A DNA stretch of 64,000 bases from a virus (Duplodnaviria; Heunggongvirae; Uroviricota; Caudoviricetes): the IMG/VR virus record IMGVR_UViG_3300026478_000263. One strand, written 5' to 3'. The position numbers were made by a program, and so were the translations under genes. Shown in pieces: positions 1,360 to 37,895 of the stretch. Positions within the stretch are counted from its first letter, which is position 1, and each line of letters opens with the position of its first letter. The notes beneath the pieces are model-generated. The model worked only from the letters and a program-made list of their open reading frames with translations, did no database searches and had not been told where the DNA came from.

Positions 1360-1369
1360 ATAATAGATT

Positions 1370-2737: not shown

Positions 2738-2774
2738 CCTACGTCCAAAACGCTGAACAAGACACAGAGACATT

Positions 2775-3390: not shown

Positions 3391-3392
3391 AA

Positions 3393-3677: not shown

Positions 3678-3694
3678 TATAAATAATTTTGTAG
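3676..3694 (+). promoter_or_regulatory. T4-type late promoter motif GATATAAATAATTTTGTAG
   Basis: TATAAATA core at 3678-3685; near-identical copy at 33150-33168. Confidence 0.4.
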
Positions 3695-3767
3695 AACGCC
3701 AATAGGGTTTTACGAAACGGGCAGTTGCCCACAATTAAAATCTTGCTTAATTATAAGGAGAAATGTT

Positions 3768-5633: not shown

Positions 5634-5699
5634 ACTCGTTATGTAGGGTGCCCGGGTGGGGCCCTACTAAAATTCTTGCTTAATTAAAGGAGATATAAA

Positions 5700-6146
5700 A
5701 TGACACAATTAACACGTTTTGACACAGCCGCTCTAAACAGAGCATTAATCGGTTTCGACAATCTATTCGATACTTTCGAAACACGCTTTGCACATCAGAT
5801 TTCGAACAACTATCCTCCATATAATATTGAAAAGTCTGGAGAAAACCAGTATAATATAGTTGTTGCTGTAGCAGGATTCGGTAAAGATGAAGTTGCAGTA
5901 GAAGTGGAAGGTGATCAATTAACTATTCGCGGCGAGAAGGCAATCAATGCTAACGAAGGCGAATACCAAGTTGAGTACTTACACAGAGGTCTTGCTTTCC
6001 GTGATTTCGAACGTAGATTTACTCTAGCAGAACACATGGAAATCAAGTCAGCAGAAATTAAGGATGGTGTGCTTACAATTCAAATCGAGCGCATTGTTCC
6101 TGAAGCACTTCTGCCACGTAAGATTGAAGTGAAAGAAGTTAAGTAA
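5700..6146 (+). CDS. small heat shock protein (Hsp20/IbpA-like)
   Basis: alpha-crystallin domain pattern (GVLTIQI...); 148 aa; shares leader motif with dnaK. Confidence 0.8.
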   Translation: MTQLTRFDTAALNRALIGFDNLFDTFETRFAHQISNNYPPYNIEKSGENQYNIVVAVAGFGKDEVAVEVEGDQLTIRGEKAINANEGEYQVEYLHRGLAFRDFERRFTLAEHMEIKSAEIKDGVLTIQIERIVPEALLPRKIEVKEVK

Positions 6147-6201
6147 AAAATCGGGGGCTCCGGCCCCCACTAATAAATACCATTAAGAATGGAGGGCCAA
6201 T

Positions 6202-6510
6202 ATGCCAACTGTAGACACCGAAATTAAAATTGACGAAAAGATTAAAATCGATATCACTGAACCTAAGCGTTACAAGGTATTGTTTTTAAATGATAACAAA
6301 ACTCCAATCGACTTTGTTATTGAATTACTAATGACTGTGTTTAAGCACTCCAGAGAAAATGCTGAACAGATTACATTAACTGTACACAATGAAGGTTCAG
6401 CAGTAGTAGGTGTTTATACCTACGAGATCGCCGAGCAGAAAGGTGTTGAGGCAACACACCTTGCACGTCAAGCAGGCTTCCCATTACAAATTAAAGTGGA
6501 TTCCGAATGA
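6202..6510 (+). CDS. clpS: ClpS ATP-dependent Clp protease adaptor
   Basis: YKVLFLNDNKTPIDFVIELLMTVF...QITLTVHNEGSAVVGVYTYEIAEQK matches the ClpS core. Confidence 0.85.
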   Translation: MPTVDTEIKIDEKIKIDITEPKRYKVLFLNDNKTPIDFVIELLMTVFKHSRENAEQITLTVHNEGSAVVGVYTYEIAEQKGVEATHLARQAGFPLQIKVDSE

Positions 6511-7061
6511 GTCTAAAAGAACTTACACACGAGCAACATCGCAGAGCAGAAACAAGGCCTTTTGTTAAAGTCTTATTTTCAGGAAATGTAAATCCTAAAC
6601 TATACGCAACATATCTAAAAAATCAACATCCAATGTATGAGATTTTAGAAGTCTGTGCTATGCCACATGGATTACTTTCCGGTCTACCAGAGATACGCAG
6701 AGCACCTGCAATTTTATCTGACTTCATAGAACTATGGGGCTCAGACAATCCTGAAGAACCAAAAATGTGTCCGGTAGTGGATGAATATATCAAATATATT
6801 CTCAGCATCAAAGATGATCCTAAAAAGTTGATGGCACACATTTATGTACGTCACATGGGAGATTTATCAGGCGGTCAAATGATTGCTAAAAGAGTTCCAG
6901 GCAGTGGCAAATACTATCAGTTTGGAGACGAACCTGAAAAGATCAAAGAAGCAATTCGTGCAAAACTAGATGATAGTCTAGCAGATGAAGCAAGAGTATG
7001 TTTTGATTTTGCGGCAAAATTCTTTGATCAAATGATGGATATAGTTCCACACTATGAGTAA
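6507..7061 (+). CDS. heme oxygenase
   Basis: LKELTHEQHRRAE proximal-His motif and overall HO-fold length (184 aa); immediately upstream of bilin reductase. Confidence 0.7.
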   Translation: MSLKELTHEQHRRAETRPFVKVLFSGNVNPKLYATYLKNQHPMYEILEVCAMPHGLLSGLPEIRRAPAILSDFIELWGSDNPEEPKMCPVVDEYIKYILSIKDDPKKLMAHIYVRHMGDLSGGQMIAKRVPGSGKYYQFGDEPEKIKEAIRAKLDDSLADEARVCFDFAAKFFDQMMDIVPHYE

Positions 7062-7734
7062 AGTATGGGACACGCTGATTGAAGTTCAGCATCTTTTAGA
7101 AAGCAGTTTTAATGAAACAGGAACAGAAATCTTTGAACCGGGCATGGATCGCTTTAATCAGCCTGGTTGGGTTAATCGTGTTTGGACCAGTGGGTCTTAT
7201 CGCCGTGCTCACGTTGATGTTGTGGATGCTAGAGAAACCAAAGGACTCTGGATGATGCATTGTTGCATCTTCCCACACTTACACAATCCAGCACCAATTT
7301 ACGGCTTTGACGTTGTAGCAGGCAAGAATAAGATTACTGGCTGTTTTCATGATTACAGCAAAGCAGGAGATTCTAATCATCCTATGATGGAATGGTTTGC
7401 TGATTATGTTAAACGACTCGAATGGCGCAGAGAACGCCAACTACCAGAATGGGCTACCAACATATTCAGCCCTAGCATGGTAGCCGCAGGTAATGTGCAG
7501 AGCGAAGAAGAACTAGCGCAGATTATAGAAATGGCTAAAGATACACTGGCACATTACTTAGAAACTGTAGCAGAAACTAATAATACTACTGAAAATACCA
7601 CAGAAGCGCAGAACTACTACGCAATCAATCAAAAATGTAACCCACATACTCCACGTGTAATGGCTAGTTTAGGCTTAGATGAAGAGGATGTTAGGGTATT
7701 CATACAGGAATGTTTGTTCCCAGAAATTCGCTAA
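7054..7734 (+). CDS. ferredoxin-dependent bilin reductase (PcyX/PcyA/PebS family)
   Basis: FDBR family signature region (WMMHCCIFPH, DVVAGKNK); 226 aa; coupled to heme oxygenase. Confidence 0.75.
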   Translation: MSKVWDTLIEVQHLLESSFNETGTEIFEPGMDRFNQPGWVNRVWTSGSYRRAHVDVVDARETKGLWMMHCCIFPHLHNPAPIYGFDVVAGKNKITGCFHDYSKAGDSNHPMMEWFADYVKRLEWRRERQLPEWATNIFSPSMVAAGNVQSEEELAQIIEMAKDTLAHYLETVAETNNTTENTTEAQNYYAINQKCNPHTPRVMASLGLDEEDVRVFIQECLFPEIR

Positions 7735-7757
7735 ATACAGAATAGACGGATTTTACC

Positions 7758-8666
7758 ATGAGAGCAAAAGAATTCATCACAGAAGCAACCAATGCCGCAC
7801 AACAAGCCGCTATCGCTATTGCTAAAAAGAAAAAGCAAAATGTAAAAGAATTTGCGCCGGATAATAGTGGCGACGAAGAAGAAACATTACTCAAGTACGC
7901 TCGTATTTGGTACAATGGCGATGACGACATACAACAAAAAGTTGAAAAACTATTAAATCGTATGGGTTGGGAAATTGGCGAAATCGAATCAGAAGAAGGC
8001 GGCGCATTTGTTGTGCAGTCTGGCGATGAGCATGGTAAGAGTTATATTGGTTTTGCCCCAGAAGACTTAACTGAAGCCGCCATGGCGGAAGGTGTCGATA
8101 TTGGCCGAGAGTGGATGAGCGACACTGAATTGGATCAGTATGTGCCAGATCGCTTACAACAACAATGGCGTGAATTGTTGGGTTACGATCGCCATGGCAA
8201 TCCAAGTGCATTGTGGGCAAACTTAACAGGCGGATATGAACCGGATGTTAATGATCGTCAACATCGTGCCCTAATGGTTAAAGTGGCTAACAAATGGTTT
8301 GCGGCTAAGAAGATTCCTAATGTTAAATTCTTCAGTGTTAGAGATGCAGACGATGAATTAGAATGGTTAGTTCAAATTGGCCCAGAAGGTATGTCAGAAG
8401 ATTGGCAGAAGGTTAATAAGAAAGACAAAACCGATGGCATGAGCAGTAAAGCCGTTAAAGCATATCGTAGAGAACATCCTGGTAGTAAATTAAAAACAGC
8501 AGTCACTACACCTCCTAGCAAATTAAAGAAAGGATCTAAGGCAAGTAAGCGTAGATCAAGTTTTTGTGCTAGAAGTGATGGCCAAAAGAAAATGCACAAT
8601 ATTGATTGCACTAAGACACCAGACAAGGCAATCTGCAAAGCACGTAAACGTTGGAACTGTGAATGA
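7758..8666 (+). CDS. putative internal head protein with T4-like capsid-targeting N-terminus (MRAKEFI)
   Basis: N-terminus MRAKEFITEA resembles T4 IP capsid-targeting sequence MKTYQEFIAE; Cys/basic-rich C-terminus. Confidence 0.5.
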   Translation: MRAKEFITEATNAAQQAAIAIAKKKKQNVKEFAPDNSGDEEETLLKYARIWYNGDDDIQQKVEKLLNRMGWEIGEIESEEGGAFVVQSGDEHGKSYIGFAPEDLTEAAMAEGVDIGREWMSDTELDQYVPDRLQQQWRELLGYDRHGNPSALWANLTGGYEPDVNDRQHRALMVKVANKWFAAKKIPNVKFFSVRDADDELEWLVQIGPEGMSEDWQKVNKKDKTDGMSSKAVKAYRREHPGSKLKTAVTTPPSKLKKGSKASKRRSSFCARSDGQKKMHNIDCTKTPDKAICKARKRWNCE

Positions 8667-10216
8667 GAGCAAAAGAATTTATTTTATTTGAATCTGAAGG
8701 CGGCATGGCCCGCCGTGCAGAAGAAGCCGGCCGTGGCAAACGTGTAGCATTTAAAAATGCAGATGGAAATGTTATTCATATGATTGCATCTCAAGTGTTT
8801 CCACAAGACGTAGACAAGCGAGACAATTATCAAGAACTAGTTCCAGAGATTATGGACTATGTGAAGGCTAACAATGTAGCAGTATCTAACGCACTAACAC
8901 TTCCGCCAGTGGGCGGACTAAGCATACCTGAAAAAGCAGGTGCCGCATTAGTAATGATTTTTAAAGATGAAAAATCTAAAAAGAACATAGCATGGATCGC
9001 TCTTAAGCCTGCTAAGAAGCCAGGTGCTTATCCAATCTTCTTACAGACTAAACAGTTTTCAGACCTAACTGGTTATGTACAACTAAGCGGCAAAGCAGGA
9101 GAGGAAGATAAAATTTCTGGAGTACAACAACGTGCTCTAACTAATTTAAAACCTGTTGGAATTATTCCTACTAATACAACCATTGCTGTAGATGATATTC
9201 CTACACAAGTGCAAGGTTCTATTCAAGAGCGTGATGATCTAGCAGATGCTATTAAACAACAGGTAGTACAACTATTGCAGGCTGTTGCTTCTGGTAGCAG
9301 TAATCCTGTCCCCGGCGCCGGCGACTATGCTAAGAGTTACGAAATTGATTTAGGTGAAACAGCCGCACCAATTTCATTAATTAAGAAAAAGTTCTTAAGT
9401 GGTGCATGGCAACAGGCCGAAGCCGGAATGGGTTTGAAGTTTGAAGAAGCCGTTGGTGTAGAATTTCCAAACGATCCTGCTGAAAAACTATACGATAGTT
9501 ATTTGAAGTTTTCAGGTGATGTGAAGATTCGTGTAAGTTCCAAAGACAAGCAAGGCGGCGCAAAGGCATCTGTATCTGGTGTGGTAGACGATATAGCGGC
9601 ATACCCGCAACGTTATGAAGGATTGTTTGATCCTAAAGTCAACCCAGGCTTCCAAGAGCTACTAGACATTGTAAACATTATTAAAGACCCTGACATGAGT
9701 TATGTGGCTAAAAGCGCACAATGGAAACGAAATGGTTCTATTGCTGGTGCATTAGAATTAGGTGTCAAAGTAGGCATCATCGATGGTACACAAGCAGAAA
9801 AAATTATGGAAATCATTGACAGCGATCAGCCGCATGTTGATGACGAAACACTAGGCGACTTAAAAGGATTGTTAGTTTATAAAGGCACAGACGATTCGAC
9901 AAGACCAGACTACAGAATTGGTTGGCATTTATTAGCCGCAGTAGCAACTGGCACAGCAAATAAAGTAAACAAGGACTACAAGACAGATGCTTTCTTCAAA
10001 GCAGTTCTGGAACGTTCCAATATGTTACAAGTCAAAACTTCATTACAACAGAAGCCTACTAAGGACGCTGAAGGTAAACCATCAAATGGAGCATACTTCT
10101 CCAATTTTGAAGTTATCTATCCTCCAGTATTCACGGGCACAATTAAATTGGATGCCAGCAGTAACTTCTACGCTACAAGAAGACCAGTTGGTAAAATGGG
10201 TTTCGCAATCCGTTAA
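8663..10216 (+). CDS. putative internal head protein with T4-like capsid-targeting N-terminus (MRAKEFI)
   Basis: N-terminus MRAKEFILFE; paralogous N-terminus shared with 7758 and 17604 genes; 517 aa. Confidence 0.5.
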   Translation: MRAKEFILFESEGGMARRAEEAGRGKRVAFKNADGNVIHMIASQVFPQDVDKRDNYQELVPEIMDYVKANNVAVSNALTLPPVGGLSIPEKAGAALVMIFKDEKSKKNIAWIALKPAKKPGAYPIFLQTKQFSDLTGYVQLSGKAGEEDKISGVQQRALTNLKPVGIIPTNTTIAVDDIPTQVQGSIQERDDLADAIKQQVVQLLQAVASGSSNPVPGAGDYAKSYEIDLGETAAPISLIKKKFLSGAWQQAEAGMGLKFEEAVGVEFPNDPAEKLYDSYLKFSGDVKIRVSSKDKQGGAKASVSGVVDDIAAYPQRYEGLFDPKVNPGFQELLDIVNIIKDPDMSYVAKSAQWKRNGSIAGALELGVKVGIIDGTQAEKIMEIIDSDQPHVDDETLGDLKGLLVYKGTDDSTRPDYRIGWHLLAAVATGTANKVNKDYKTDAFFKAVLERSNMLQVKTSLQQKPTKDAEGKPSNGAYFSNFEVIYPPVFTGTIKLDASSNFYATRRPVGKMGFAIR

Positions 10217-10227
10217 GCCAAATCTAG

Positions 10228-10257
10228 TTGACAAATCTTACGAAGTTCATATATAAT
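10228..10257 (+). promoter_or_regulatory. sigma70-like promoter (TTGACA-17-ATATAA/TATAAT)
   Basis: consensus -35 and -10 with 17-18 bp spacer directly upstream of tRNA-Thr. Confidence 0.5.
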
Positions 10258-10266
10258 AAAAACATT

Positions 10267-10342
10267 GCCCCTTTAGCTCATCTGGTAGAGCAACTGATTT
10301 GTAATCAGTAGGTGGTCTGTTCGAGTCGGACAAGGGGCACCA
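10267..10342 (+). tRNA. tRNA-Thr (anticodon TGT)
   Basis: cloverleaf with 7-bp acceptor, anticodon loop TTTGTAA, T-loop TTCGAGT, encoded CCA. Confidence 0.8.
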
Positions 10343-10364
10343 TTTTTAACTTCAGGAGAAATTT

Positions 10365-11054
10365 ATGTTTGGTGCAAGTTACACAGGTACTGGAATTTAC
10401 CGTTCAGCCGCACAGATCAATGAAGCAATGGGTCGTGTCTATGGACACATGAGCCTAGCAGTTCTTGTGTCTATGATTGTTAGTTACTTTGTAGGTACTA
10501 GCCCAGAATTGTTACAATTCTTCTTTACAGGTGTAATGAAGTGGATTGTAATTTTTGCACCACTGGTTGCTATCTTTGGTGTTAGCATGGTACTATCTAA
10601 TAACCCTAGTAAACAAGTCGCCCAACTATGCTTACATGGTTTTGCGGCATTAATGGGTTTGAGCTTTGCTACAATTTTTGCTATCTTTACCATGGGCAGT
10701 ATTGTTAGTGCGTTTATGGGTGCGGCGATCTTGTTTGGTACAATGAGCTTCTATGGATACTTTACAAAACGTAGTTTGGAAAGTCTTGGACAGTTTATGT
10801 TCATTGGATTGATTGCTATTGTTATTGCCAGTATTGTTAACATCTTTATTGGTAGTAGTGTAATGGCCATGGTTATCAGTGCATTAGCAATTATTATCTT
10901 TCTAGGATTAACTGCTTACGATACACAGCAAATACGAGAAATGGTTTCAATCGACTCTGATCCTGCAACCGAAGTAACAGGTGCATTAACACTATATATG
11001 GATTTTATTAATCTGTTCATTAATTTACTACAGTTGTTTGGTGATAGAAAATAA
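10365..11054 (+). CDS. Bax inhibitor-1/YccA family membrane protein (FtsH modulator)
   Basis: 7 predicted TM helices, 229 aa, C-terminal AYDTQQI...LYMDFINLF motif characteristic of the BI-1/YccA family. Confidence 0.8.
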   Translation: MFGASYTGTGIYRSAAQINEAMGRVYGHMSLAVLVSMIVSYFVGTSPELLQFFFTGVMKWIVIFAPLVAIFGVSMVLSNNPSKQVAQLCLHGFAALMGLSFATIFAIFTMGSIVSAFMGAAILFGTMSFYGYFTKRSLESLGQFMFIGLIAIVIASIVNIFIGSSVMAMVISALAIIIFLGLTAYDTQQIREMVSIDSDPATEVTGALTLYMDFINLFINLLQLFGDRK

Positions 11055-11075
11055 TTAACTAGTATGTTAATTAAT

Positions 11076-11105
11076 AAAAGGGCTCTTCGGAGCCCTTTTT
11101 TATTA
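11076..11105 (+). terminator. rho-independent terminator
   Basis: GGGCTCTTCGGAGCCC hairpin followed by TTTTTTATT. Confidence 0.7.
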
Positions 11106-11168
11106 TGTGGTAATAGAATCTTTCTTGCTCTAGATTAAATAATAGTGAGATAGCCGGGAGCGAACCGA

Positions 11169-11708
11169 ATGAAAAAACTATTATCACTTATAGCATTATT
11201 GCCTATGATTGTATCGGCAGCACCTTTAGGTGATTACACCTTTAAGAGTCCTGCCTTTAACGGCGTAGGTTACAGCAGTCATGTATTAACCATTGAGAAT
11301 CAAGAGCGCACACGTCAGAAAGAACGTGCAGATAAACTACAGGCTGAAATTGACAAAGCAGCCGCAGATAAGAAAAACACCAACCTTGCTAAGTTTGTTA
11401 GTAACTTAGAATCACGTATCTATGCACAGATTAGTCAGAACGTAGCAACCGCTATGTTTGCCAATAACAACTGTACAGCAAGTAGCAACACAAACTGTTC
11501 TGGCAACATTGACTTCCAGGGCAACTATATTAGTTGGGGCAGAGTTAGTAGTGCTAACGATGCTAACTGTTCAACAGCCTACGGATACTGCATTATGTTA
11601 AAGATTGCAGATCCTACAGCCACTAACCCAAGTACAGCATCATGCACAGACACTGGAATGAGTTGTGTGTATGTTCCATTAAGTTCATTCCAAATGCCGG
11701 GGAACTAA
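11169..11708 (+). CDS. csgF: CsgF-like curli assembly protein (secreted)
   Basis: signal peptide; YTFKSPAFNGVG resembles CsgF FQFRNPNFGG motif; downstream QISQNV segment resembles CsgF; directly upstream of csgG. Confidence 0.55.
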   Translation: MKKLLSLIALLPMIVSAAPLGDYTFKSPAFNGVGYSSHVLTIENQERTRQKERADKLQAEIDKAAADKKNTNLAKFVSNLESRIYAQISQNVATAMFANNNCTASSNTNCSGNIDFQGNYISWGRVSSANDANCSTAYGYCIMLKIADPTATNPSTASCTDTGMSCVYVPLSSFQMPGN

Positions 11709-11711
11709 GAC

Positions 11712-12881
11712 ATGAAAAAGACAATACTATCCCTAGCAGTTTTAACTATGCTTTCAGGTTGTGCTGTTATGCAGACAACTGGAGTACTAGACAAGAGTCC
11801 TGAAGTTACAGGGCAAATGACTAATGTTAAGAAAGAATTTGATACAATACCTAGTCCAATCGCTGGAAGACCACTAAGCGTGGCCGTTTATAGTTTTACT
11901 GATAAAACAGGTCAACGTAGACCGCAGGCAAACATTGCCAGTTTATCAACAGCAGTGACACAGGGTGCAGAAACATTCTTAATACAGGCATTACAAAATG
12001 TAGGACGCGGTCAATGGTTCGACGTTGTAGAACGTGTGGGCATTGATAACCTAACTAAAGAACGTTTAATTATTAGGCAAATGCGCGAAGCATATGAAGG
12101 TAAAGATGCTAAACCATTGCTACCAATGCAATTCGCTGGAATTATTGTAGAAGGCGGAATAGTAGGCTACGATCAAAGCACTACCAGCGGTGGTGTAGGT
12201 CAACGTATATTTGGCATAGGCAAAAATACACAGTGGAGCACTGATACAGTAACAGTAAGTTTACGAGCAGTTAGCGTAAACACTGGTAAGGTATTAGCCA
12301 CAGTGACAGTACAAAAGACTATCTTAAGTTCAGCAGACAGCGTATCTGCATTAAAATTCTTTGACGCAGGCACTAAGGCATTTGAAGCAGAAGCAGGTTT
12401 AACTATCAATGAACCTGGCACTTACGCTACAAAGGCAACTATTGAAATGGCAGTCGTAGAGTTAATTAAGGAAGGACAACGTAAAGGTGTATGGGAGTTT
12501 AAACCAGAATCCGCACCAGCGGCCAAGGCACCTGTACCAGCACCAGCGGCCCAGCCGGTAATTAGCTCTGAGATTAAAGAAGAAGTTAAAGTAGAGGAGA
12601 AGAAAGATGTCGTGGTTCAATCACAAACCAAATCCGAAACCGAAACCAAGGCCGTACCCAGTACCGCCGCAAAAGAACTAGAGAAGTTACCTACAGAAGC
12701 AATTCTAAAGGATGCTCAGTTTATATACAAGGAGCCAAACGAAAAGAGTCAAAGGACTTGGCAGTTTAAGCCAAATACACGAGTATTCATAACCGGGAGC
12801 GAAGGTGATTGGGTACAAGTGCAGGACGTAGAGAAGCGTAAAGGGTTTGTTAAAAAAGAAGTAGTTAACAAACAAAAATAA
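11712..12881 (+). CDS. csgG: CsgG curli secretion channel lipoprotein with C-terminal SH3b-like extension
   Basis: lipobox LSGC; long blocks nearly identical to E. coli CsgG (IIVEGGIVGYDQSTTSGGVGQRIFGIGKNTQW...LRAVSVNTGKVL...KTILS); extra Pro/Ala linker plus ~70 aa GDWVQVQ domain. Confidence 0.9.
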   Translation: MKKTILSLAVLTMLSGCAVMQTTGVLDKSPEVTGQMTNVKKEFDTIPSPIAGRPLSVAVYSFTDKTGQRRPQANIASLSTAVTQGAETFLIQALQNVGRGQWFDVVERVGIDNLTKERLIIRQMREAYEGKDAKPLLPMQFAGIIVEGGIVGYDQSTTSGGVGQRIFGIGKNTQWSTDTVTVSLRAVSVNTGKVLATVTVQKTILSSADSVSALKFFDAGTKAFEAEAGLTINEPGTYATKATIEMAVVELIKEGQRKGVWEFKPESAPAAKAPVPAPAAQPVISSEIKEEVKVEEKKDVVVQSQTKSETETKAVPSTAAKELEKLPTEAILKDAQFIYKEPNEKSQRTWQFKPNTRVFITGSEGDWVQVQDVEKRKGFVKKEVVNKQK

Positions 12882-12964
12882 GAAAGAGAGGTAGCACTTT
12901 AAATTTTTTAATGGTCTTAGACCAAGGAGCGAGTTAGGGAAGATAACCTAATTCTGTAAAAACG

Positions 12965-13939
12965 ATGCATAAGAGAATCACAGGCGCTGGTGGGTTGTCG
13001 AGAAAATTACTCACAATTCTGGTGTTGTCTGCAATGACAACATTGGGTTATGCGGCTGACAATAGCATTTACATTGATCAGTCCGGCGATAATAGTACTA
13101 TTACTATGACTCAAGACGGAGCAGGAAACAAAGTAAAGGGTATATTATTAAATGGCACAGCAGGTGGAACAACTGATCCTGCTAAACTAACTGGTGCCGC
13201 ACAGACTATCAACATTGAGCAAACAGGAGCAACTAACGTATTGGCGTTAGGTGTTAACTCAACACAAGGTGGTACTGTACAAGGTTATGCTAATATTGGT
13301 GTGAATTTAAATTACCAAGTAAGTGGTGGTGGAAACACAGGTTACATTAATATTAACAATAATGGTACAGGCACAGCCAGTGGTAACGTTGTTAGTTTTG
13401 TTCAAAGTGGCGGTAGTGCAACTACAACACTTAACATGACTGGTACAAGTAACCAATTAACTGTTGGAACTAGTGGTGGTGCTAACAACACATTTACAGG
13501 TACAATCAACGCTGATGAAACTGTAGCAACTGTTAGTCAAACAGGTGGCGGCGGCAACGCAACTACACTTAACATGACCGGAAACAAAGGTCAAGTTAGT
13601 CTAACAACTGTTGGTGCAACTAACACTACATCTGTAACACAGAGTGCATACGGTGTAACTGGTGCTCAAGCAATTATCAACATCACAGGTTCTGGTAATA
13701 CTACAGACGTAACACAAACTGGTGCGTACGATCACTATGCTAGTATTACTGTAACAGGCGGTAGCAATGGCATTACACTTGCACAAACAGGTGGATCTGC
13801 TACTGGACACAGCACAACGTTATCTGTAACAGGTAGTACTAATACTATTGGTATTACACAACAAGGATCAGTTAGCAATCTAACTAATCTTGCTATATCA
13901 GGAAGTGGCAACACTTACACTATTTTACAGAAAAACTAA
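12965..13939 (+). CDS. curlin-repeat (CsgA/CsgB-like) secreted protein
   Basis: signal peptide; many degenerate repeats of type xTQxGxxNxxxxxxxGxxN (e.g. VTQTGAYD..., ITQQGSVSN...) typical of curlin subunits; Gly/Thr/Asn/Gln-rich. Confidence 0.7.
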   Translation: MHKRITGAGGLSRKLLTILVLSAMTTLGYAADNSIYIDQSGDNSTITMTQDGAGNKVKGILLNGTAGGTTDPAKLTGAAQTINIEQTGATNVLALGVNSTQGGTVQGYANIGVNLNYQVSGGGNTGYININNNGTGTASGNVVSFVQSGGSATTTLNMTGTSNQLTVGTSGGANNTFTGTINADETVATVSQTGGGGNATTLNMTGNKGQVSLTTVGATNTTSVTQSAYGVTGAQAIINITGSGNTTDVTQTGAYDHYASITVTGGSNGITLAQTGGSATGHSTTLSVTGSTNTIGITQQGSVSNLTNLAISGSGNTYTILQKN

Positions 13940-13948
13940 GAGGGTTCC

Positions 13949-15055
13949 ATGAAATTATGGATGGTAGTATTATGCGTTCCGTTGCTGAGTACATCGTTGG
14001 CCTACGCCGCGATAGGCAAAGTAACGGAACAAATCAATACACCCCCGACTATCCAGAGACAGAATTCGACACTAACGGCGTCGAAAGGGACTGGAGTGGA
14101 AATGAACGATGCGATCAAGACCCAGCAGGGCAAGGTGGGGATAACATTTGAGGACGATACTAAAGTCCAAGTCAATGAAAATTCTAAACTTGTAATTGAT
14201 GATTTCGTTTATGATCCAAAAAGTAAGGCGGGTAAACTAGGTGCTAAGATTGCTCTTGGCACAGTTCGTTATGCGTCTGGACAGATTGCTAAGAATTCGC
14301 CTCAGAATGTGGCCCTTTCTACTCCTAGTGCTACTGTTGCTGTACGCGGTACTGACTTTACTGCCACTGTAGACGAGCTAGGCGAAAGTACAATTATTCT
14401 TTTACCTAGTTGTCCTAATGATAGACCAACACGCTCAGTTAGAGATATTGAAACTAACTGTAAGACTGGCAGTATTGAAGTTAGCAATGATGTAGGTACT
14501 GTAATACTAAATCAACCCTTCCAAGTAACTAAAGTTCAAAGTAGAACACAACCTCCTACACCGCCTAAAGTATTAAATCTAAGTGAAATGGCCATTGGCA
14601 ATATGTTAATTGTCAGTCCTCCGCGCGAAGTCAAACAAGCACAACAAGAACAACAGAGAACATTTAATGCTTTAGACTTTGACTTTTTAAAAGAGAAAGG
14701 TTTGGAGAATTATTTAGATATGCAGGCCAATATGATTTATGAAGATAAGTTAGCCAAAAACTTTTTGTCTAATGATTTCCTTGCTAACTTATTCGACATT
14801 GTGGGAAACATACTGGATCAAAAGTTTTTAGATCCTGTAGATCCTGTGCTACCAGACTATAAAAAGTCCAGTGGCATTATAGCCTACAAAGATGATATGA
14901 GTGTTGAACTCTGTCGCGACAACGGTGCTGACATACAATGTGTTAAAACACCACTCACACAAAACTCAACAATATTACAAACACAGGGCAATTTAGAATT
15001 TAAGAACAGAATAAATCAGGGAGGTAATACTATTATTACCTTGATACAAAAATGA
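13949..15055 (+). CDS. secreted hypothetical protein (curli-cluster associated)
   Basis: signal peptide; beta-rich; sits between curlin-repeat genes, ATGA overlap with downstream gene. Confidence 0.4.
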   Translation: MKLWMVVLCVPLLSTSLAYAAIGKVTEQINTPPTIQRQNSTLTASKGTGVEMNDAIKTQQGKVGITFEDDTKVQVNENSKLVIDDFVYDPKSKAGKLGAKIALGTVRYASGQIAKNSPQNVALSTPSATVAVRGTDFTATVDELGESTIILLPSCPNDRPTRSVRDIETNCKTGSIEVSNDVGTVILNQPFQVTKVQSRTQPPTPPKVLNLSEMAIGNMLIVSPPREVKQAQQEQQRTFNALDFDFLKEKGLENYLDMQANMIYEDKLAKNFLSNDFLANLFDIVGNILDQKFLDPVDPVLPDYKKSSGIIAYKDDMSVELCRDNGADIQCVKTPLTQNSTILQTQGNLEFKNRINQGGNTIITLIQK

Positions 15056-17445
15056 TAAAACGTTTATTACAGTTCCTTGTGTTTTTAACTGTGTGCATTA
15101 GCGCACATAGTCAGGCTGTGACTTATAATGCTATTGCTACTGCTTATGTTACTACTACAATTAGTCAACAAGTAGTGTTTGATAGTAATATGCAACAAGG
15201 CGGTACATTTACAATGAGTGTACTAGCACACAACGGCGGCGGCCGTGCAGGACAAAGTGATACGGCTAACGTAAAGATACAGTTCTATAACAGCAGTGGT
15301 GGATTAATCACTAGCGTAAACTCAACTAACTCTGCTAACTTACCAAACCCAAATGCTGTGTGTGGTAATCCTTGTATTGATACTGCGGTACCTTGGACTA
15401 CAGTAACTATCAGTGCAACGCTTACTGCGGCACAAGCAAGCCAAGTAGCCTATGCCACAGTCAGTATGTACGGTATTGATGGAAGTTACTGGGCAGGTGA
15501 TTATGGTCCTTGGTATCGTGCTCCTACATTCCAACTTAATGGCGGCGGCAACTTATTGTATAACCCGGAGTTTGGGCCTTATAATAATATAACAGCACAA
15601 GGTTGGGTATCAAATCCAGGGTTCGGTGCTTGTCAAGGTGCATGGGGCGGATCAAATGCCTGTATCGTTAACAGCGATGGAGTGCCTGGTTCGAGTACAG
15701 TTGGCTTAGTTGCTAACGCTAACGGTGGCGGCCCTAGTGCTACTGGTGGTACTACTAGTGGTACTGCTGGTGGATATAATAACACAATGTCAGTGACCAA
15801 TGCTGGCACGGGCGCAACTGCCGGTGCGGCTCCTGCTCCGACTCCTACAGTAACAGGAACTAGTGTAACTTATACAACTAGAACTGTGGTTAATGGTAAT
15901 ACAACTACTGTTTATCGCACACCTGTAACTACAACAACTTACAGCGACGGAACTAGCACAAGTACAAATGGTACTGAAGCAGTATATCAAACTAAGGTTG
16001 CGTCTAACGTAGTAACTACAAAAATTGTAAACGGTGTTCTGACAACAACTACAACACCAATTAATACAGTTACTACAACCGGCGTTAATGGCAGCACCAT
16101 AGAAGCAAACGGCACAGCAACAACTACAACACAAAACATACAGCAGGGATTAAACTATAAAGTCTACAAATTCGATCCTTACACTTATAACTGCGGTTGG
16201 TTAGGTTGTATTAAAAACTGGTTAGGGCCATATCGTGTACCTGATATGCCACCTGGTGGACAGCCTGTTAGTATTGGTACAACTAGTAACGGAGTTTATG
16301 TTCCGACTAACGGCAGTTTTCCAAATATGGACACTGGTACCTTAGTTAGATTCAACGGAACGATTACTGCTCCGACGACACAAAATTATCCTGCAGGTAC
16401 TGTATATAGATTATACTTCTATAGCAACAGCGATGACGGATTTGTTATGAGTGTAAACGGACAAACAGTTATCAACGATAGATCTACATTCCAACTTCAG
16501 AGTATAGGTGGCTATACAGCGTCTGGCTGGATAGACATAGTAGCAGGACAGACTTATAATTTTGAAGCATGGTACTGGAACGACACCGGCGGCTATGGAC
16601 TACGTTTTCAATGGGACTACGGTGCAGGCCGTATGAACGTACCTAACTCTGCATTTACTACAGGGTGGATTACTGAAACAAATACAATTGACACTAGTGG
16701 ATTTGTTTATTCTAACAGCGCAGTAGTTGACGTGTCGGGTACAACAGTTTTATTAGGACCAGTAGTTGAAGGTGGAACAATTACACAAACAAATGCGCCT
16801 GGTGATCAAGTTATAGGTAGCGGTGGCTCATACGTTCCTCCAGCAGATATAGATGTTAAACAAACTAGAATTAATACTTGGAACAACGGTACACAAAACT
16901 ACAATAACGAATTGTACATCACACAAACATACGGTACTAACAATAATGTAACTATTACACAAAGTGGTACTAAGAACAAAATCGAATTTACCTTAGAAGG
17001 AAACAACAATATTGTTAATAATACTCAAACTGGCAGTAACTACTTAAAGCAAGAAGTGCCTGGGTGGGGCAATAACATAACTACTAATCAGTCAAATGCT
17101 AGTGGTTCAAATTATGCTGAAACTAAAATACAAGGAAATGGTAATACTGTAAATCATACACAAACCGGTAATCACATATTGTTCAGTAAAGTTACAGGCG
17201 ATATTAATACTGTAAACACTACACAGTCTGGCGGTGCTGGCCATTTCGCTGATATTACACTAACAGGAAATAACAACTCAGCACTAGTGACACAAACAGG
17301 AAATACTGCTAACAGAGCAGTTATTGATGTAACTAACGCAGGTGGCCCAGCCAGTGTTGACCTGCAACAAACAGGCGGCAAATCATTTAGCATCATTCAA
17401 AGTTGTACAAATCCAGCGGGTTGTAGCACAGTTGTTCGCCAATAA
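15052..17445 (+). CDS. giant secreted Thr-rich protein with PA14-like domain and C-terminal curlin repeats
   Basis: signal peptide; Thr/Gly-rich low-complexity; PA14-like segment (GYGLRFQWDYGAG); C-terminal repeats VTITQSGTKN / NTTQSGGAGH / VTQTGNTAN of curlin type. Confidence 0.6.
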   Translation: MIKRLLQFLVFLTVCISAHSQAVTYNAIATAYVTTTISQQVVFDSNMQQGGTFTMSVLAHNGGGRAGQSDTANVKIQFYNSSGGLITSVNSTNSANLPNPNAVCGNPCIDTAVPWTTVTISATLTAAQASQVAYATVSMYGIDGSYWAGDYGPWYRAPTFQLNGGGNLLYNPEFGPYNNITAQGWVSNPGFGACQGAWGGSNACIVNSDGVPGSSTVGLVANANGGGPSATGGTTSGTAGGYNNTMSVTNAGTGATAGAAPAPTPTVTGTSVTYTTRTVVNGNTTTVYRTPVTTTTYSDGTSTSTNGTEAVYQTKVASNVVTTKIVNGVLTTTTTPINTVTTTGVNGSTIEANGTATTTTQNIQQGLNYKVYKFDPYTYNCGWLGCIKNWLGPYRVPDMPPGGQPVSIGTTSNGVYVPTNGSFPNMDTGTLVRFNGTITAPTTQNYPAGTVYRLYFYSNSDDGFVMSVNGQTVINDRSTFQLQSIGGYTASGWIDIVAGQTYNFEAWYWNDTGGYGLRFQWDYGAGRMNVPNSAFTTGWITETNTIDTSGFVYSNSAVVDVSGTTVLLGPVVEGGTITQTNAPGDQVIGSGGSYVPPADIDVKQTRINTWNNGTQNYNNELYITQTYGTNNNVTITQSGTKNKIEFTLEGNNNIVNNTQTGSNYLKQEVPGWGNNITTNQSNASGSNYAETKIQGNGNTVNHTQTGNHILFSKVTGDINTVNTTQSGGAGHFADITLTGNNNSALVTQTGNTANRAVIDVTNAGGPASVDLQQTGGKSFSIIQSCTNPAGCSTVVRQ

Positions 17446-17463
17446 AATCTAACTAAATATTGG

Positions 17464-17607
17464 ATGCTGAAAAACATCTTAATATTAGCAATTATTACAA
17501 CCTTAGCAGGCTGCGCCGGAATAGCATTTTGCGACAAAGACGGACGACCCAAGGGTTGCCACTCATGGGATCCTGCTACTCGAAACGGCGCGGCACCAAG
17601 ATCATGA
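17464..17607 (+). CDS. small lipoprotein (47 aa), not in ORF track
   Basis: ATG at 17464 encodes MLKNILILAIITTLAGCAG... with a classical lipobox; stop overlaps next gene start (ATGA). Confidence 0.3.
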   Translation: MLKNILILAIITTLAGCAGIAFCDKDGRPKGCHSWDPATRNGAAPRS

Positions 17608-18140
17608 GAGCAAAAGAATTTATAAAAGAAGCAGAAGCAAGTGACGCCGATTTAAAAGCAAGATATGGTGACTTCGATCCTGAAGATAAAATAATGCTTC
17701 CAACTACAAAATTAAGCAGAGAACCTGCAGCCACGCTTTGGACAGCATATGATGTAGTTAGAAATATTCTAGGTAGAGATAGAGTAACTGACGATGATGA
17801 CGAATTAGGTCCTGGAATGTATTATGTCTACCAGAGTAGCGGAGATCCAATGTTTAGGGATACAGGCGACGGCGTTGGCAGTATCAACTTACCAAATCTA
17901 GACAGCACCGCGGCACGAGACGTTGCTGTTGCGGCCCACGAAGCATATCACGCTTATGTACACGCTAAAAGTAAAGGCGGCTTTGCACACGCTAATGAAA
18001 AGATTATTAACAACTTAGCAGAAAAATGGTTGCGTAAACATTTATCAGGACAAGCCTTACATACAGCATTAGAACAAATTATAGGCAGTAGAATTAGTTA
18101 CGGCCGCAACCACTTACCAAAGCCAGGATTTAAAAAATGA
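17604..18140 (+). CDS. putative injected zinc metalloprotease with T4-like capsid-targeting N-terminus
   Basis: starts MRAKEFIKEAE (internal Met of track ORF 17460..18140); contains HEAYH (HExxH) motif. Confidence 0.5.
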   Translation: MRAKEFIKEAEASDADLKARYGDFDPEDKIMLPTTKLSREPAATLWTAYDVVRNILGRDRVTDDDDELGPGMYYVYQSSGDPMFRDTGDGVGSINLPNLDSTAARDVAVAAHEAYHAYVHAKSKGGFAHANEKIINNLAEKWLRKHLSGQALHTALEQIIGSRISYGRNHLPKPGFKK

Positions 18141-20188
18141 AAATACAATTCAAAAAAATACTAGTAAGTCCATGGACTGCTTTACTAACTCTAGCACTAG
18201 TTGTTGGTGTCAGAGTTGCAGATCCTACATTTGTTGAAAGCGTAAGACTACGTTATTTTGACACATTAATTACAAGTAAAGAAGTTACAGTTAACAACAT
18301 AGTTACTGTAAATATCGACGAAGCCACGTTAGACAAATATGGTCAGTGGCCCTTACCAAGAGCAGAATATGCTAAACTTGTGAAGGAACTATACCAAAGA
18401 AATGCAGGACTTGTTGTACTTAATGTTCTTATGCCAGAGACAGATCGTACTGGTGGAGATGGTGCGCTAGGACAAACTCTAAAAGAGTTCCCTGTAGTAC
18501 TAGGAAGTGCGCCAGCACAGAAAACAAAGAATACACCACGTGTTCCAGGATCGGCTGTACTAGGTCCAGAACATCTAGATCAAATTATTCAATACCCGGG
18601 ACTAATCGCCAACGTTCCTCAACTAGAACAAAATGCCGCAGGTGTTGGCATTACAGGAACACTTCCAGAAGTAGATGGTGTTAATCGCCGCATGCCGTTA
18701 ATTGTTACTGTAGACGGCAAATTATATCCAGCATTGAGTTTAGAGACACTTAGAGTCGCCGCAGGAGACTCTACCTTCCAAGTAAAACTTTTTGAAGGCG
18801 GCGTTGAGAAAATGCGTATTCCAAAGTTTGGTCCTATTGCTACAGATAGTTTAGGAAGAATTTGGATCGATTGGAGCCAAGAAGCTCATAGCGTTAGTGC
18901 TGTTAAACTTCCAAAAGATTTAGGTGGCGCCGTCGTTATTGTAGGTCCTACTGCCGCTGGTATTAGTAATCCGTTACCGACAAGCAAAGGTGCTGTATTT
19001 CCTCACGAAGTGCAGGCCGCAGTAATTGGTACAATGGTTAACGGCATTGTTATTCAACGTCCCGACTATGCCGACGGGGTTGAAATTTTAGCATTAGTAT
19101 CACTTGGCATATTATTAATTTTCTTATCGAGGTGGACTTATGTTGGCATTGGTGCTACTGTGGTTATTGTTGGTGCCATCGTTCCTGGTACTATCTACGC
19201 TTTCAATAATTGGCTCGTCTTGGGAGACGCGACTGCGATCGCGTTTGGCCTTATTATCGTTGCTCTTCATTGTTATGGCGTTAAGTTTATAAGCGAGTTT
19301 TTACAGAAACAGGCAATTAAGAAACAGTTCGCTGGATACTGTAGTAAGGAAGTAGTAGAAATGCTACAAAAAGATCCAGACCTAATCAAGCGTGGTGTGC
19401 GTAAAGACGTATCCGTTATGTTCAGTGACTTGCGTGGCTTTACACCCATTGGAGAACACTACGGTGATGATGTTGCTGGATTAGGCAAGTATATGAACGG
19501 TTACATGGATGCTATTAGTCAGCCTATCATGGACAACAAGGGTATGGTCATAAAGTATGTAGGTGACGCAAGTATGCACATACACGGTGCTCCGATTGAA
19601 GATCCTAATCATGCCCGTACTATTGTTGCTGTTGGTTTACAGATGTTAGATGCTGTTGATGAGTATACTAAACTAATGGAAGCACAAGGCTTACCACCAG
19701 CCGCAATGGGTTGGGGTTGTAACTCAGGTATTGGCTTTATTGGTGAGATGGGATCAACTGACAGACATAGTTACGACATCTTAGGTGACATGGTTTCAAC
19801 CGCCGCTCGTTTAGAAGCACGTTGTAAGGCCTATGGCGTGTTATGTATCATCGGTGCTGAAACTTACAACCGTACTAAAGATGACTTCTTCTATCTAATG
19901 CTAGATAACTTACAACCTAAAGGCAAAACTGTAGCAGACTTAATCTATACAGCATTAAGAACCAAAGGTGAAGATTACAGTAAAGATAAAGTACAGCACG
20001 AGTTGATGCATGCCTTGTATAAACAAAAGAAGTTCGACGAAGCAGCCGCTATGTGTAAAAAACTAAAAGGCAACTTTGGTGGACAAATGGACAAGTACTA
20101 CAAAATCTGGATTGAACGTTGCGAGTTTATGAAAGAACAGAACCTTCCAGATAATTGGAATGGTGAATTCATAGCACATGAAAAATAA
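18137..20188 (+). CDS. CHASE2 sensor domain / class III adenylate(guanylate) cyclase
   Basis: N-terminal TM plus periplasmic CHASE2-like domain and several TM helices; C-terminal cyclase motifs VSVMFSDLRGFT ... KYVGDASM. Confidence 0.8.
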   Translation: MKIQFKKILVSPWTALLTLALVVGVRVADPTFVESVRLRYFDTLITSKEVTVNNIVTVNIDEATLDKYGQWPLPRAEYAKLVKELYQRNAGLVVLNVLMPETDRTGGDGALGQTLKEFPVVLGSAPAQKTKNTPRVPGSAVLGPEHLDQIIQYPGLIANVPQLEQNAAGVGITGTLPEVDGVNRRMPLIVTVDGKLYPALSLETLRVAAGDSTFQVKLFEGGVEKMRIPKFGPIATDSLGRIWIDWSQEAHSVSAVKLPKDLGGAVVIVGPTAAGISNPLPTSKGAVFPHEVQAAVIGTMVNGIVIQRPDYADGVEILALVSLGILLIFLSRWTYVGIGATVVIVGAIVPGTIYAFNNWLVLGDATAIAFGLIIVALHCYGVKFISEFLQKQAIKKQFAGYCSKEVVEMLQKDPDLIKRGVRKDVSVMFSDLRGFTPIGEHYGDDVAGLGKYMNGYMDAISQPIMDNKGMVIKYVGDASMHIHGAPIEDPNHARTIVAVGLQMLDAVDEYTKLMEAQGLPPAAMGWGCNSGIGFIGEMGSTDRHSYDILGDMVSTAARLEARCKAYGVLCIIGAETYNRTKDDFFYLMLDNLQPKGKTVADLIYTALRTKGEDYSKDKVQHELMHALYKQKKFDEAAAMCKKLKGNFGGQMDKYYKIWIERCEFMKEQNLPDNWNGEFIAHEK

Positions 20189-20209: not shown

Positions 20210-20959
20210 GTGTACAATAGACAGATGTGTAGAGTTATATCTATATTGGTATTTTTTGCCTTTTTACATCATGGGCAAACAAGCGCCGCCACTGCCAAAC
20301 CTCTGTCTATCACCGCTCAGAGCTGGCTCGTGGCCGATGAATCCGGCAGAATTATTCAAAGCGAAAACATAGATCAACAGCGTAGTATTGCCAGCATTAC
20401 TAAACTAATGACGGCAATGGTTGTGTTAGATGCTAATCAAAACTTAGATGAACAAATCGGTAAGTATACCCGAGCCGAAACAATACAACTAGCATTAGTA
20501 CACAGCGACAACAAAGCGGCTGATCTACTGTGTCAATACTATCCTAATGGTAAGGATGCCTGTGTTAGAGCAATGAATACTAAAGCACATCTGTTAGGTA
20601 TGCACGACACAAAGTATGTCGAACCTACAGGGCTTAGTGTGTTTAATGTAAGCACAGCCACTGATTTAATTAAACTAGTTCTAGCGGCAAAGAACTACGC
20701 AGAGATTATTGAAGCATCACGCACACCGCAGGTTAAAATTAAGATAAAGAAAAAGTGGTTTATCTTTAATAATACTAATCCAATTATTGGCAAGCGTCAT
20801 GAATTTATTGTCAGCAAAACTGGCTACATAAGAGCCAGTGGAGGTTGCATAGTAATGATGTTGGATACAGAAATAGGACGCAGAATTGTAGTAGTACTAG
20901 GAAGTAAGAATACTAAGACACGTATTCCTGAAGCAGAGTTTATTGCTGTTAATTCCTAA
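20210..20959 (+). CDS. D-alanyl-D-alanine carboxypeptidase/endopeptidase (peptidase S11, PBP)
   Basis: signal peptide; SxxK (SITKLM), SxN (SDNKAAD) and KTG (SKTGYI) active-site motifs. Confidence 0.75.
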   Translation: MYNRQMCRVISILVFFAFLHHGQTSAATAKPLSITAQSWLVADESGRIIQSENIDQQRSIASITKLMTAMVVLDANQNLDEQIGKYTRAETIQLALVHSDNKAADLLCQYYPNGKDACVRAMNTKAHLLGMHDTKYVEPTGLSVFNVSTATDLIKLVLAAKNYAEIIEASRTPQVKIKIKKKWFIFNNTNPIIGKRHEFIVSKTGYIRASGGCIVMMLDTEIGRRIVVVLGSKNTKTRIPEAEFIAVNS

Positions 20960-21653
20960 CCTGTGCAAGGTTAAAGAAGCGTAGTACCTTAATATAGATC
21001 CAACCGATATCTAATTCAAACCAACGTTGACGGAAACTAGCATTGGCCCCATCGGCATGATGATTGTTATGTAGTTCCTCACCACCGATCCAAATAGCCC
21101 AAGGCCATAAGTTACGGCTAGTGTCTTTGGTGTCAGTATTACGATATCCCCACCAATGTGCCAGTCCATTAATAACACCAGCGGCCCAGAATGGAATCCA
21201 TATCATTTGAATGCCCCACACAAGAATACCCCAAGGACCAAAGAACAATAAGTCTATGACTAACATTAAGAGAATTCCAAGGCGGCTGTGTAGGGTGTAA
21301 ACATTACGCTCTAGCCAATCATCAGGAGTACCTACTCCTAACTTTTCAACCATTGCGGTATCTTTACTGGCAGAGTGATATAAACTCCAGCCTTTGAATA
21401 GCACAGTTTTAATACCGTAAACTTGTGGACTGTGCGGATCTAAATCTGTATCGCTGGCTTGATGATGTTTGCGATGTATTGCTACCCATTGCTTGGTAAC
21501 CATACCTGTTGTAAGCCAAAGCCAAAAACGCATGAAGTGATTTACTGCTGGATGGAATGTTACTGCTCTGTGTGTTTGTCCTCTATGAAGATAAAGGGTA
21601 ACACAGGCTATGGTGATTTGAACCATCACCAAGGTGGCTATAATTGTTGACAT
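20949..21653 (-). CDS. membrane fatty-acid desaturase (delta-9 acyl-CoA/lipid type)
   Basis: three His boxes (HRGQTH, HRKHHQASDTDLDPHSP, HNNHHAD) and 4 TM helices. Confidence 0.8.
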   Translation of the reverse strand: MSTIIATLVMVQITIACVTLYLHRGQTHRAVTFHPAVNHFMRFWLWLTTGMVTKQWVAIHRKHHQASDTDLDPHSPQVYGIKTVLFKGWSLYHSASKDTAMVEKLGVGTPDDWLERNVYTLHSRLGILLMLVIDLLFFGPWGILVWGIQMIWIPFWAAGVINGLAHWWGYRNTDTKDTSRNLWPWAIWIGGEELHNNHHADGANASFRQRWFELDIGWIYIKVLRFFNLAQVRN

Positions 21654-26885: not shown

Positions 26886-26910
26886 AAGGGCCTTCGGGCC
26901 CTTTTTTATT
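26886..26910 (+). terminator. rho-independent terminator
   Basis: GGGCCTTCGGGCCC hairpin + TTTTTTATTTT; identical hairpin reused at 35323. Confidence 0.75.
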
Positions 26911-26922
26911 TTACCAAACACA

Positions 26923-37890: not shown

Positions 37891-37895
37891 AATAA

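Follow-up and report, generated by a model that had tools for sequence, protein, structure and literature searches.

What is the function of a short N-terminal sequence, MRAKEFI followed by a glutamate, with which three genes begin in a 64,000-nucleotide (nt) stretch of the genome of an uncultured member of Caudoviricetes (IMG/VR record IMGVR_UViG_3300026478_000263; this whole stretch is hereafter the window)? The genes, g7758, g8663 and g17604, were singled out in a first-pass annotation of the DNA, in which they were taken for paralogs equipped with a capsid-targeting N-terminus similar to that of the internal proteins of bacteriophage T4. We propose, with reasonable although not high confidence, that MRAKEFI-x-E is an N-terminal leader of the T4 type, for capsid targeting and cleavage, in a lineage of jumbo phages without an earlier description of one, and that the proteins it marks are taken up into the head and then probably passed on to the host. 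The genes, their leaders and the features that bear on this proposal are as follows.

7758-8666, + strand: g7758, 302 amino acids (aa), N-terminus MRAKEFITEA
7758-7784, + strand: leader of g7758, 9 codons (MRAKEFITE), cleavage predicted after Glu9
8663-10216, + strand: g8663, 517 aa, N-terminus MRAKEFILFES
8663-8692, + strand: leader of g8663, 10 codons (MRAKEFILFE), SEGG next
17464-17607, + strand: open reading frame (ORF) of 47 aa, lipoprotein-like signal, TGA stop overlapping the g17604 start codon (ATGA)
17604-18140, + strand: g17604, 178 aa, N-terminus MRAKEFIKEA
17604-17630, + strand: leader of g17604, 9 codons (MRAKEFIKE), AEASD next
17937-17951, + strand: HEAYH motif of g17604, residues 112-116

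A leader common to three unrelated proteins

Six-frame translation of the window yields exactly three MRAKEFI strings, which are those of g7758, g8663 and g17604; further MRAKEFI ORFs are found in environmental contigs (see below). The three genes start with an identical run of 20 nt, ATGAGAGCAAAAGAATTYAT, and a search of the window with this sequence, allowing up to 3 mismatches, returned 3 matches compared to 0 in 100 shuffles. The start of g17604 is the same ATG, not an upstream TTG, in independent gene calls on public contigs (178 aa). The Glu that was reported to follow MRAKEFI is indeed present in each protein, at position 9 in g7758 (I-T-E) and g17604 (I-K-E) and at position 10 in g8663, where I-x-E is replaced by L-F-E, one residue further on.

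Pairwise BLASTP alignments of the three proteins are confined to the first 7-10 residues, which rules out their paralogy, a point on which the first-pass annotation, right in the main, was wrong. Thus, these are unrelated proteins with one leader in common, and a targeting signal fits this pattern better than paralogy. In the AlphaFold models, the leader region is disordered (residues 1-9 of g17604, with a predicted local distance difference test score (pLDDT) below 50, and residues 1-11 of g8663), and the bodies of both are large folded proteins (pLDDT 78-87). The neighbors of the three ORFs encode a bilin reductase, a BaxI-like protein, curli-like proteins and an adenylate cyclase, with no structural module among them.

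An exact scan of IMG/VR with the 20-mer retrieved at least 115 contigs of 4-525 kb, with 117 matches. All 117 listed matches translate as MRAKEF[IM] at or near an ORF start, and 115 of them lie no more than 21 codons from the upstream in-frame stop. Trimmed of the leader, the encoded proteins form, among the matches listed, at least 24 clusters without mutual similarity. The largest one, of ~125 aa, accounts for 86 of the 117 proteins; this family contains the motif YRFGVALAGA, has no PHROG match and often occurs as adjacent pairs of genes overlapping by ATGA (L007 and others), the remaining 23 clusters being small (proteins of 70-583 aa). The cargo with a recognizable domain includes an M23 peptidase, with an additional weak match to a peptidoglycan-binding domain that is below the cut-off, an amidoligase-like protein and a DUF5591 protein. 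In many loci, 2-4 leader genes are located side by side, including those with variant leaders such as MRANEFVSE, MRASEFLTE and MKSTEFIKE.

The conservation of the leader was assessed in a set of 154 distinct leaders selected on residues 1-6 only. Position 7 is I, L, V or M in 153 of the 154 (I, L or V in 150), and Glu occupies position 9 in 144 of them (94%), with no preference at the variable positions 10-13. Such a sharp boundary after Glu9 is expected if the conserved unit ends at (I/L/V)-x-Glu, so that, as far as the sequence motif goes, the I/L-x-E end first noticed in the window holds for the wider set. The orthologs of all three window proteins retain a leader, though its residues vary. 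Furthermore, the leader is an add-on because a protein of the IMG/VR contig L107 starts with MRAKEFINE followed by SWSQKYKNSINCSHPKGF, whereas its homolog in cyanophage S-SRM01 begins MGWSEKYKKSIDCNNPKGF.

In T4, the internal head proteins enter the scaffolding core by means of a capsid targeting sequence, and gp23, gp24, Alt and the internal proteins lose their N-terminal propeptides through cleavage after Glu by the gp21 protease, the sites in Alt being ITE-6 and LTE-619 (PMC5694885). The internal proteins of T-even phages are a diverse defense set in which the targeting sequence alone is conserved, and one of these, T4 IPI*, counters GmrSD (PMC3012670). A leader that is present on unrelated proteins, is kept in their orthologs and ends in (I/L/V)-x-E is what would be expected of a gp21-type propeptide. 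The likeness to the T4 sequence that was perceived from the DNA of the window alone turned out to be closer than claimed. The leader in the records is MKTYQEFIAEA for T4 IPII and IPIII, MKTYKEFITEA and MKTYQEFLNES for internal proteins of Klebsiella phage JD18, and MKTYQEFITEA and MKTYSEFLSES for Shigella phage JK45; the core E-F-[IL]-x-E-[AS] is common to the T-even and the window leaders, and KEFITEA of JD18 is identical to the respective stretch of g7758. Moreover, among the matches listed for a 30-nt query from the window are 'internal head protein' genes of T-even phages.

The parallel with the T-even internal proteins extends to the organization of the genes: in both cases, a short N-terminal leader ending in (I/L)-x-E is attached to otherwise unrelated proteins, the leader DNA is conserved between genes, and the cargo is polymorphic at a fixed locus. 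The differences are that the window leader has MRA(K) instead of MKTY(Q) and is one residue shorter, and that its cargo (178-583 aa, including the putative zincin described below, the M23 peptidase and the amidoligase) is larger and more enzyme-like than T4 IPII (100 aa) and IPIII (193 aa, both sizes from coding sequence (CDS) coordinates). Small size and a basic, Lys-rich composition are typical rather than strictly defining of T4 internal proteins, and T4 Alt is also large.

The proteases of SPN3US, phiKZ, 201phi2-1 and T4 all cut after Glu, with A-x-E as the SPN3US motif, and in phiKZ and SPN3US, many inner-body or ejection proteins are loaded into the head and have propeptides that are cut after Glu by a gp21-related protease; the paralogs gp53 and gp54 have identical 15-residue N-termini (PMC5694885). 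These phages belong to another lineage, with a motif of the S80 protease that is S/A/G-x-E, not I/L-x-E, and with long, varied propeptides, whereas the genes of the window phage include rIIA and a large terminase of the T4 type. The string MRAKEFI was not found in a literature search, and the publications on a 'capsid targeting sequence', as represented by titles and abstracts among the matches listed, deal with T4, P1, P22 and the phiKZ-like SPN3US, and none with the lineage described here. The mechanism is already known from T4; what is added here is the breadth of the cargo and the leader as a handle for metagenome searches.

A look-alike was detected in Riemerella phage vB_RanS_CRP19, a siphovirus, in which an early-region ORF (L118, 3000-3323) begins with MTAKEFLTE. 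This isolated case may be due to chance or may hint at the existence of the motif outside gp21-type systems.

Under the T4-type interpretation, the leader would bring a freshly synthesized protein to the scaffolding core while the prohead is being assembled, and a gp21-family protease would cut behind the Glu with which (I/L/V)-x-E ends, Glu9 in g7758 and g17604 and Glu10 in g8663. The predicted N-termini after the cut are ATNAAQQAAIAIAK in g7758, SEGGMAR in g8663 and AEASDADLK in g17604. The mature protein would then remain in the head with the DNA and enter the host at infection.

Proteins that carry the leader

For g17604, the first-pass annotation pointed to the HEAYH motif and raised the possibility of an injected protease. 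The motif is present in the form HEA[YCF]H in all 120 homologs of g17604 among the matches listed (69-100% identical), such that HExxH itself is invariant, and another invariant Glu is located 16 residues past the second His. The structure prediction that had been recommended for this protein yields a model with a zincin-like fold, in which HEAYH lies within a helix (residues 104-122) that comes after a three-stranded sheet. The same arrangement, with the HExxH helix after a three-stranded sheet, is seen in minimal zincins, namely the minigluzincins proabylysin, projannalysin and selecase, the SprT/Spartan and ArdC protease domains, CapP and the M32 core; the likeness is by motif and model, without sequence-level membership. 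Indeed, the search of Pfam with g17604 produced nothing above the cut-off (the best match was Zn_peptidase_2, with an E-value of 0.14 and 12 bits vs 27), and the search of PHROGs gave one weak match only, to a family of unknown function (E = 0.035). There was no match in NCBIfam or in a profile search of PDB sequences and none in BFVD at E <= 0.001, and the sequence does not place g17604 in any curated peptidase family. Judging by the model, the body of g17604 is a small zincin-like putative metallopeptidase, and we predict that it would be active in the host, after injection, as a zinc metallopeptidase.

Within the g17604 family, the body begins at the conserved EA-[ED]-ASD and the leader varies (MRAKEFIKE, MRINELLE, MRITDLFE, MKIHEILSE), always with hydrophobic-x-Glu ahead of the Ala. 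In some members of the family, the leader is ~45 residues longer and ends with SLEE (SLEEAE).

The g7758 protein consists of the leader MRAKEFITE, an Ala, a mosaic of small modules and a C-terminal DUF6321 domain (PF19846; residues 222-299, nt 8421-8654; E = 2e-10, 41.6 bits vs the Pfam cut-off of 28.5); the C-terminus is visibly rich in Lys and Cys. Between this DUF6321 domain and the C-terminus of a protein from S-SRM01, the identity is 71%. Elsewhere, this domain is the C-terminus of 517-609-aa proteins of T4-like cyanophages, some of which are annotated 'virion protein' or 'structural protein' (S-SCSM1, S-E7) and are encoded beside terminase genes. Among the homologs, the modules of g7758 recur in many orders, under leaders such as MKITEIITEA, MKIRDILTEQ and MKINEIITEN. 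The g8663 protein (517 aa) is conserved, with identity within the family down to 34%; the PD-(D/E)xK nucleases, with their restriction-endonuclease-like fold and D...(D/E)xK motif, were considered as possible relatives of it. In the leaders of the g8663 orthologs, insertions and deletions retain (I/L/F)-x-Glu immediately before Ser-x-Gly-Gly.

The host phage, the predicted prohead protease and competing explanations

Identical copies of g17604 were found on 37 contigs, the longest one of 330,125 bp, indicating that these contigs come from an abundant jumbo phage of ~330 kb. The best match of the window rIIA is that of Xanthomonas jumbo phage XacN1, and the RNA ligase of the window belongs to the PHROG family 'RNA ligase and tail fiber protein attachment catalyst'. 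As judged by these and the following comparisons, the phage is an uncultured member of the PA5oct/Rak2/XacN1 group, related to T4 but distant from it. At the DNA level, no deposited phage shows similarity to the region, save for two ~50-nt matches at a tRNA-Thr gene. The accessory genes in common with Pseudomonas phage PA5oct include those for S21, Hsp20, ClpS, ClpP, an FtsH-interacting membrane protein, DNA ligase and a metallophosphoesterase. About 40 leader-bearing loci include a T4-type large terminase; for the one on L088, identity is 48-51% with the counterparts in Phosso, PA5oct and Atu_ph07 and 42-45% with those in GAP32 and other Rak2-like phages. The structural genes of the leader contigs are homologous to, and partly syntenic with, those of PA5oct, and in L044, leader genes occupy the interval from the homologs of PA5oct gp282-284 to the terminase, which in PA5oct itself contains structural proteins flagged by mass spectrometry (MS).

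A T4-type prohead protease elsewhere in the genome was predicted in the first-pass annotation. None was detected in the 84 kb that were read (the window and 10 kb on each side), but there is one in PA5oct, the nearest cultured relative examined. The PA5oct genome (NC_071039.1) contains two CDS named 'head maturation protease':

L210 30350-31021: gp212, ClpP family
L211 44079-44711: gp331, gp21 homolog

The candidacy of gp212 as the counterpart of gp21 was rejected given that it is a ClpP family protein; the true homolog is gp331, in which the conserved motifs are retained at an identity of 36% with T4 gp21. The gene order around gp331 is as in T4: portal, a 73-aa protein, a 270-aa protein, protease, putative scaffold (annotated as hypothetical) and major capsid protein. 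The 73-aa protein, gp333 (PQE65_gp333), located between the portal and the protease, starts with MKINDIITE-G and carries an electrospray ionization tandem mass spectrometry (ESI-MS/MS) virion flag; the available part of the text of the PA5oct paper does not mention its processing. This leader has the same pattern, M-[KR]-x-x-[DE]-hydrophobic-hydrophobic-x-E, as those of the window families and matches variants found on homologs of g7758 (MKITEIITEA, MKINEIITEN) and of g17604 (MKIHEILSEAE). Being in the position of T4 gp67, gp333 is probably a core protein and not an effector, and its leader is not of the MRA type. Environmental PA5oct-like contigs have MRIDEIYDP and MKIHELFEP at the gp333 position, and in freshwater cyanophage contigs with gp21, ORFs beginning with MK[TS]FKEF[IL]xEA are located ~3 kb downstream of gp21.

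In a tblastn search of the leader-bearing loci, the window and its flanks with the head proteins of T4, S-SRM01 and PA5oct, no portal, gp21, gp22 or major capsid protein was detected, the only matches being to gp18 (tail sheath) and to other genes that do not encode head proteins. The 160 gp21 loci listed from two scans of IMG/VR are all on contigs outside the leader set, and the T4 gene order downstream of the terminase is not conserved in the leader contigs. In the course of these comparisons, we observed that in the GenBank record of S-SRM01 (MW015081.1; L123, L126) the labels 'tail sheath protein' and 'terminase large subunit' seem to have been interchanged, and that the gp21 homolog is labeled 'primosomal protein'.

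Several of our observations count against a capsid-targeting function of the leader. No gp21 homolog was found in the window together with its 10-kb flanks, which is 84 kb of the ~330 kb, or, among the matches listed, on any contig carrying an MRA-type leader; and among the 80 gp21 loci listed for the PA5oct protease query, there were 0 MRA leaders within 10 kb. A search of 50,697 deposited phage records gave no match over the full 20-mer and only two partial ones, due to chance, and tblastn of g17604 and g8663 against the same records found no homologs. A second leader-like ORF of PA5oct, gp213 (MKIKEIILE), has no mass-spectrometry flag, and this flag is itself weak evidence, considering that the PA5oct virion list includes enzymes that clearly do not belong to virions, for example ribonucleotide reductase and thymidylate synthase. 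The window leader (MRAK) and that of T4 (MKTYQ) differ in their first four residues, so that convergence is possible, and the choice of the Arg2 codon, discussed below, is not accounted for by targeting. Packaging, cleavage, injection and the anti-defense role all reach beyond the sequence pattern, homology and predicted fold from which we infer them.

Among the alternatives, the one that survives best is that the leader marks parts of the prohead core or scaffold which, like T4 gp67, gp68 and gp22, are degraded and expelled at maturation, rather than injected effectors. The PA5oct protein with MKINDIITE occupies the gp67 position in the portal-protease interval, the L044 leader genes take the place of MS-flagged structural proteins of PA5oct, and both the dominance of the ~125-aa family, often in adjacent pairs, and the presence of the large terminase in ~40 loci are compatible with a morphogenetic role. 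The three window proteins, however, are encoded outside any structural module and are large and folded (pLDDT 78-87), with the enzyme-like HExxH motif in one of them, and the other cargo includes the M23 peptidase and the amidoligase; furthermore, one conserved cleavage motif was noticed per protein, at the leader, although internal I/L-x-E sites were uncounted. With these properties of the cargo, we consider it unlikely that expelled core components explain the leader.

The possibility that the conserved element acts as a nucleic acid, be it an A-rich unstructured coding start, a site of ATGA coupling or a recombination sequence, with the peptide as a by-product, is favored by the codon usage of the leader. 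The first 20 nt are identical in the three window genes, and multiplication of the window codon frequencies gives a probability of ~8e-5 that R, A, K and E would each be encoded by one and the same codon throughout. The Arg2 codon is AGA in 145 of the 158 leaders of the related contigs, compared to the Arg codon usage of 51% CGT and 24% AGA in the window. This codon uniformity, to judge from the sequences, exceeds what selection on the protein would need and implies some constraint on the nucleic acid itself. In 81 of the 158 leader genes, the leader ATGA provides the stop of an upstream reading frame with 40 or more open codons; in the window, the start of g8663 overlaps the stop of g7758 in this way, and the start of g17604 overlaps the stop of the 47-aa ORF. 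These overlaps suggest translational coupling. Upstream of the leader genes, late-promoter motifs similar to TATAAATA are not enriched, with TAAATA present in 11% vs 26% of control ORFs, although spurious ORFs in the control make this comparison uninformative.

The peptide itself nevertheless appears to be under selection. Synonymous variants exist while the residues stay (GAA and GAG in a ratio of 33:10; GCA, GCC, GCG and GCT; TTT and TTC; AGA and CGA), which indicates that selection acts on the peptide too, and leaders with variant residues keep M-[RK]-x-x-[DE]-hydrophobic-hydrophobic-x-E. Conservation of Glu9 at 94% with a sharp boundary is not predicted for a translation-start element, and the peptide matches the T4 leader, the function of which is proven at the protein level; the two levels can coexist. 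It is therefore highly improbable that the nucleic acid is all that matters in the leader.

A further observation on the side of the nucleic acid comes from the contig L077, which is syntenic with positions 178-12881 of the window. At the position of g7758 and g8663, between the bilin reductase and the BaxI-like gene, L077 carries one unrelated leader-tagged gene for a 476-aa protein (8828-10258). Comparison of the two sequences suggests cassette exchange by recombination at the conserved leader and resembles the polymorphic internal-protein loci of T-even phages, for which recombination at the leader DNA was reportedly proposed by Repoila and colleagues in 1994. Thus, considering the identical 20-nt start and the cargo replacement at this locus, the leader DNA may double as a recombination site for swapping cargo genes.

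Finally, we give hardly any credence to the leader being another kind of processing or degradation signal, read by the phage Clp system or an 884-aa subtilase, with a cut after A-K-E5 that would expose Phe6 as an N-degron: although genes for ClpS, two ClpP-like proteins and the subtilase are present in the window or its flanks, A-x-E is the SPN3US protease motif (PMC5694885) and the PA5oct ClpP is MS-flagged and annotated 'head maturation protease', no link was found between the Clp genes and the leader (their co-occurrence on leader contigs was not searched), PA5oct also has ClpX, ClpA and ClpS, more in keeping with general proteostasis than with a prohead protease, conservation reaches Glu9, beyond Glu5, and the leader is short and charged, with no signal-peptide character by inspection.

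If the capsid-targeting interpretation is correct, the logic of T4 head assembly extends to the PA5oct/Rak2/XacN1 group. Proteins injected with the DNA act ahead of any phage gene expression and are very hard to spot from sequence; as a true packaging tag, the nine-residue motif would flag candidate injected effectors in uncultured jumbo phages and could also be put to use, like the T4 tag, to bring foreign proteins into capsids of this kind. A more far-reaching scenario is conceivable, if doubtful, in which, throughout an uncultured radiation of T4-related jumbo phages, a single nine-residue tag loads a large, fast-changing enzyme arsenal (zincin, M23 peptidases, amidoligase-like proteins and possibly others), far richer than the few internal proteins of T4, for delivery to the host, the cargo is swapped by recombination at the 20-nt leader, and the HExxH protein is a conserved injected protease for host takeover or anti-defense. 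Injected effectors could in that case be listed straight from metagenomes by their leader.

Other genes of the window

A run of host-like genes (3157-7734) is located upstream of g7758:

3157-3390: ribosomal protein S21
3393-3677: MazG-like protein
3768-5633: DnaK, 68% identical to gammaproteobacterial DnaK
5700-6146: Hsp20
6202-6510: ClpS
6507-7061: heme oxygenase
7054-7734: ferredoxin-dependent bilin reductase

Between g8663 and g17604, a curli-like secretion set is encoded inside the phage genome (11169-17445). The two Thr/Gly/Asn-rich repeat proteins of this set could be secreted fiber subunits.

11169-11708: CsgF-like protein
11712-12881: CsgG with SH3 domains
12965-13939 and 15052-17445: two Thr/Gly/Asn-rich repeat proteins
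13949-15055: FecR-domain protein

Several genes for enzymes, peptidases among them, are located downstream of g17604, the last one listed lying ~2 kb past the window end:

18137-20188: CHASE2-sensor adenylate/guanylate cyclase
20210-20959: S11 D-Ala-D-Ala carboxypeptidase
20949-21653, opposite strand: fatty-acid desaturase
23185-23748: ClpP, 187 aa, 22% identical to the PA5oct ClpP (RefSeq 'head maturation protease')
53113-55767: subtilase (Peptidase_S8), 884 aa
L292 12921-13544: second ClpP-like protein

In addition to rIIA, the window also encodes an ATP-dependent DNA ligase, the BaxI-like protein and a metallophosphoesterase, as well as 33 tRNA genes and a tmRNA-like gene:

10267-10342: lone tRNA-Thr
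26527-26929: tmRNA-like gene, tag ANASTFEYFTVEGFTADNGLVAA
32620-32693: tRNA with the anticodon CTA, labeled 'Pyl' by ARAGORN
37817-45473: tRNA array, ~31 genes

The tRNA with the CTA anticodon would read UAG and could be involved in amber suppression or recoding.

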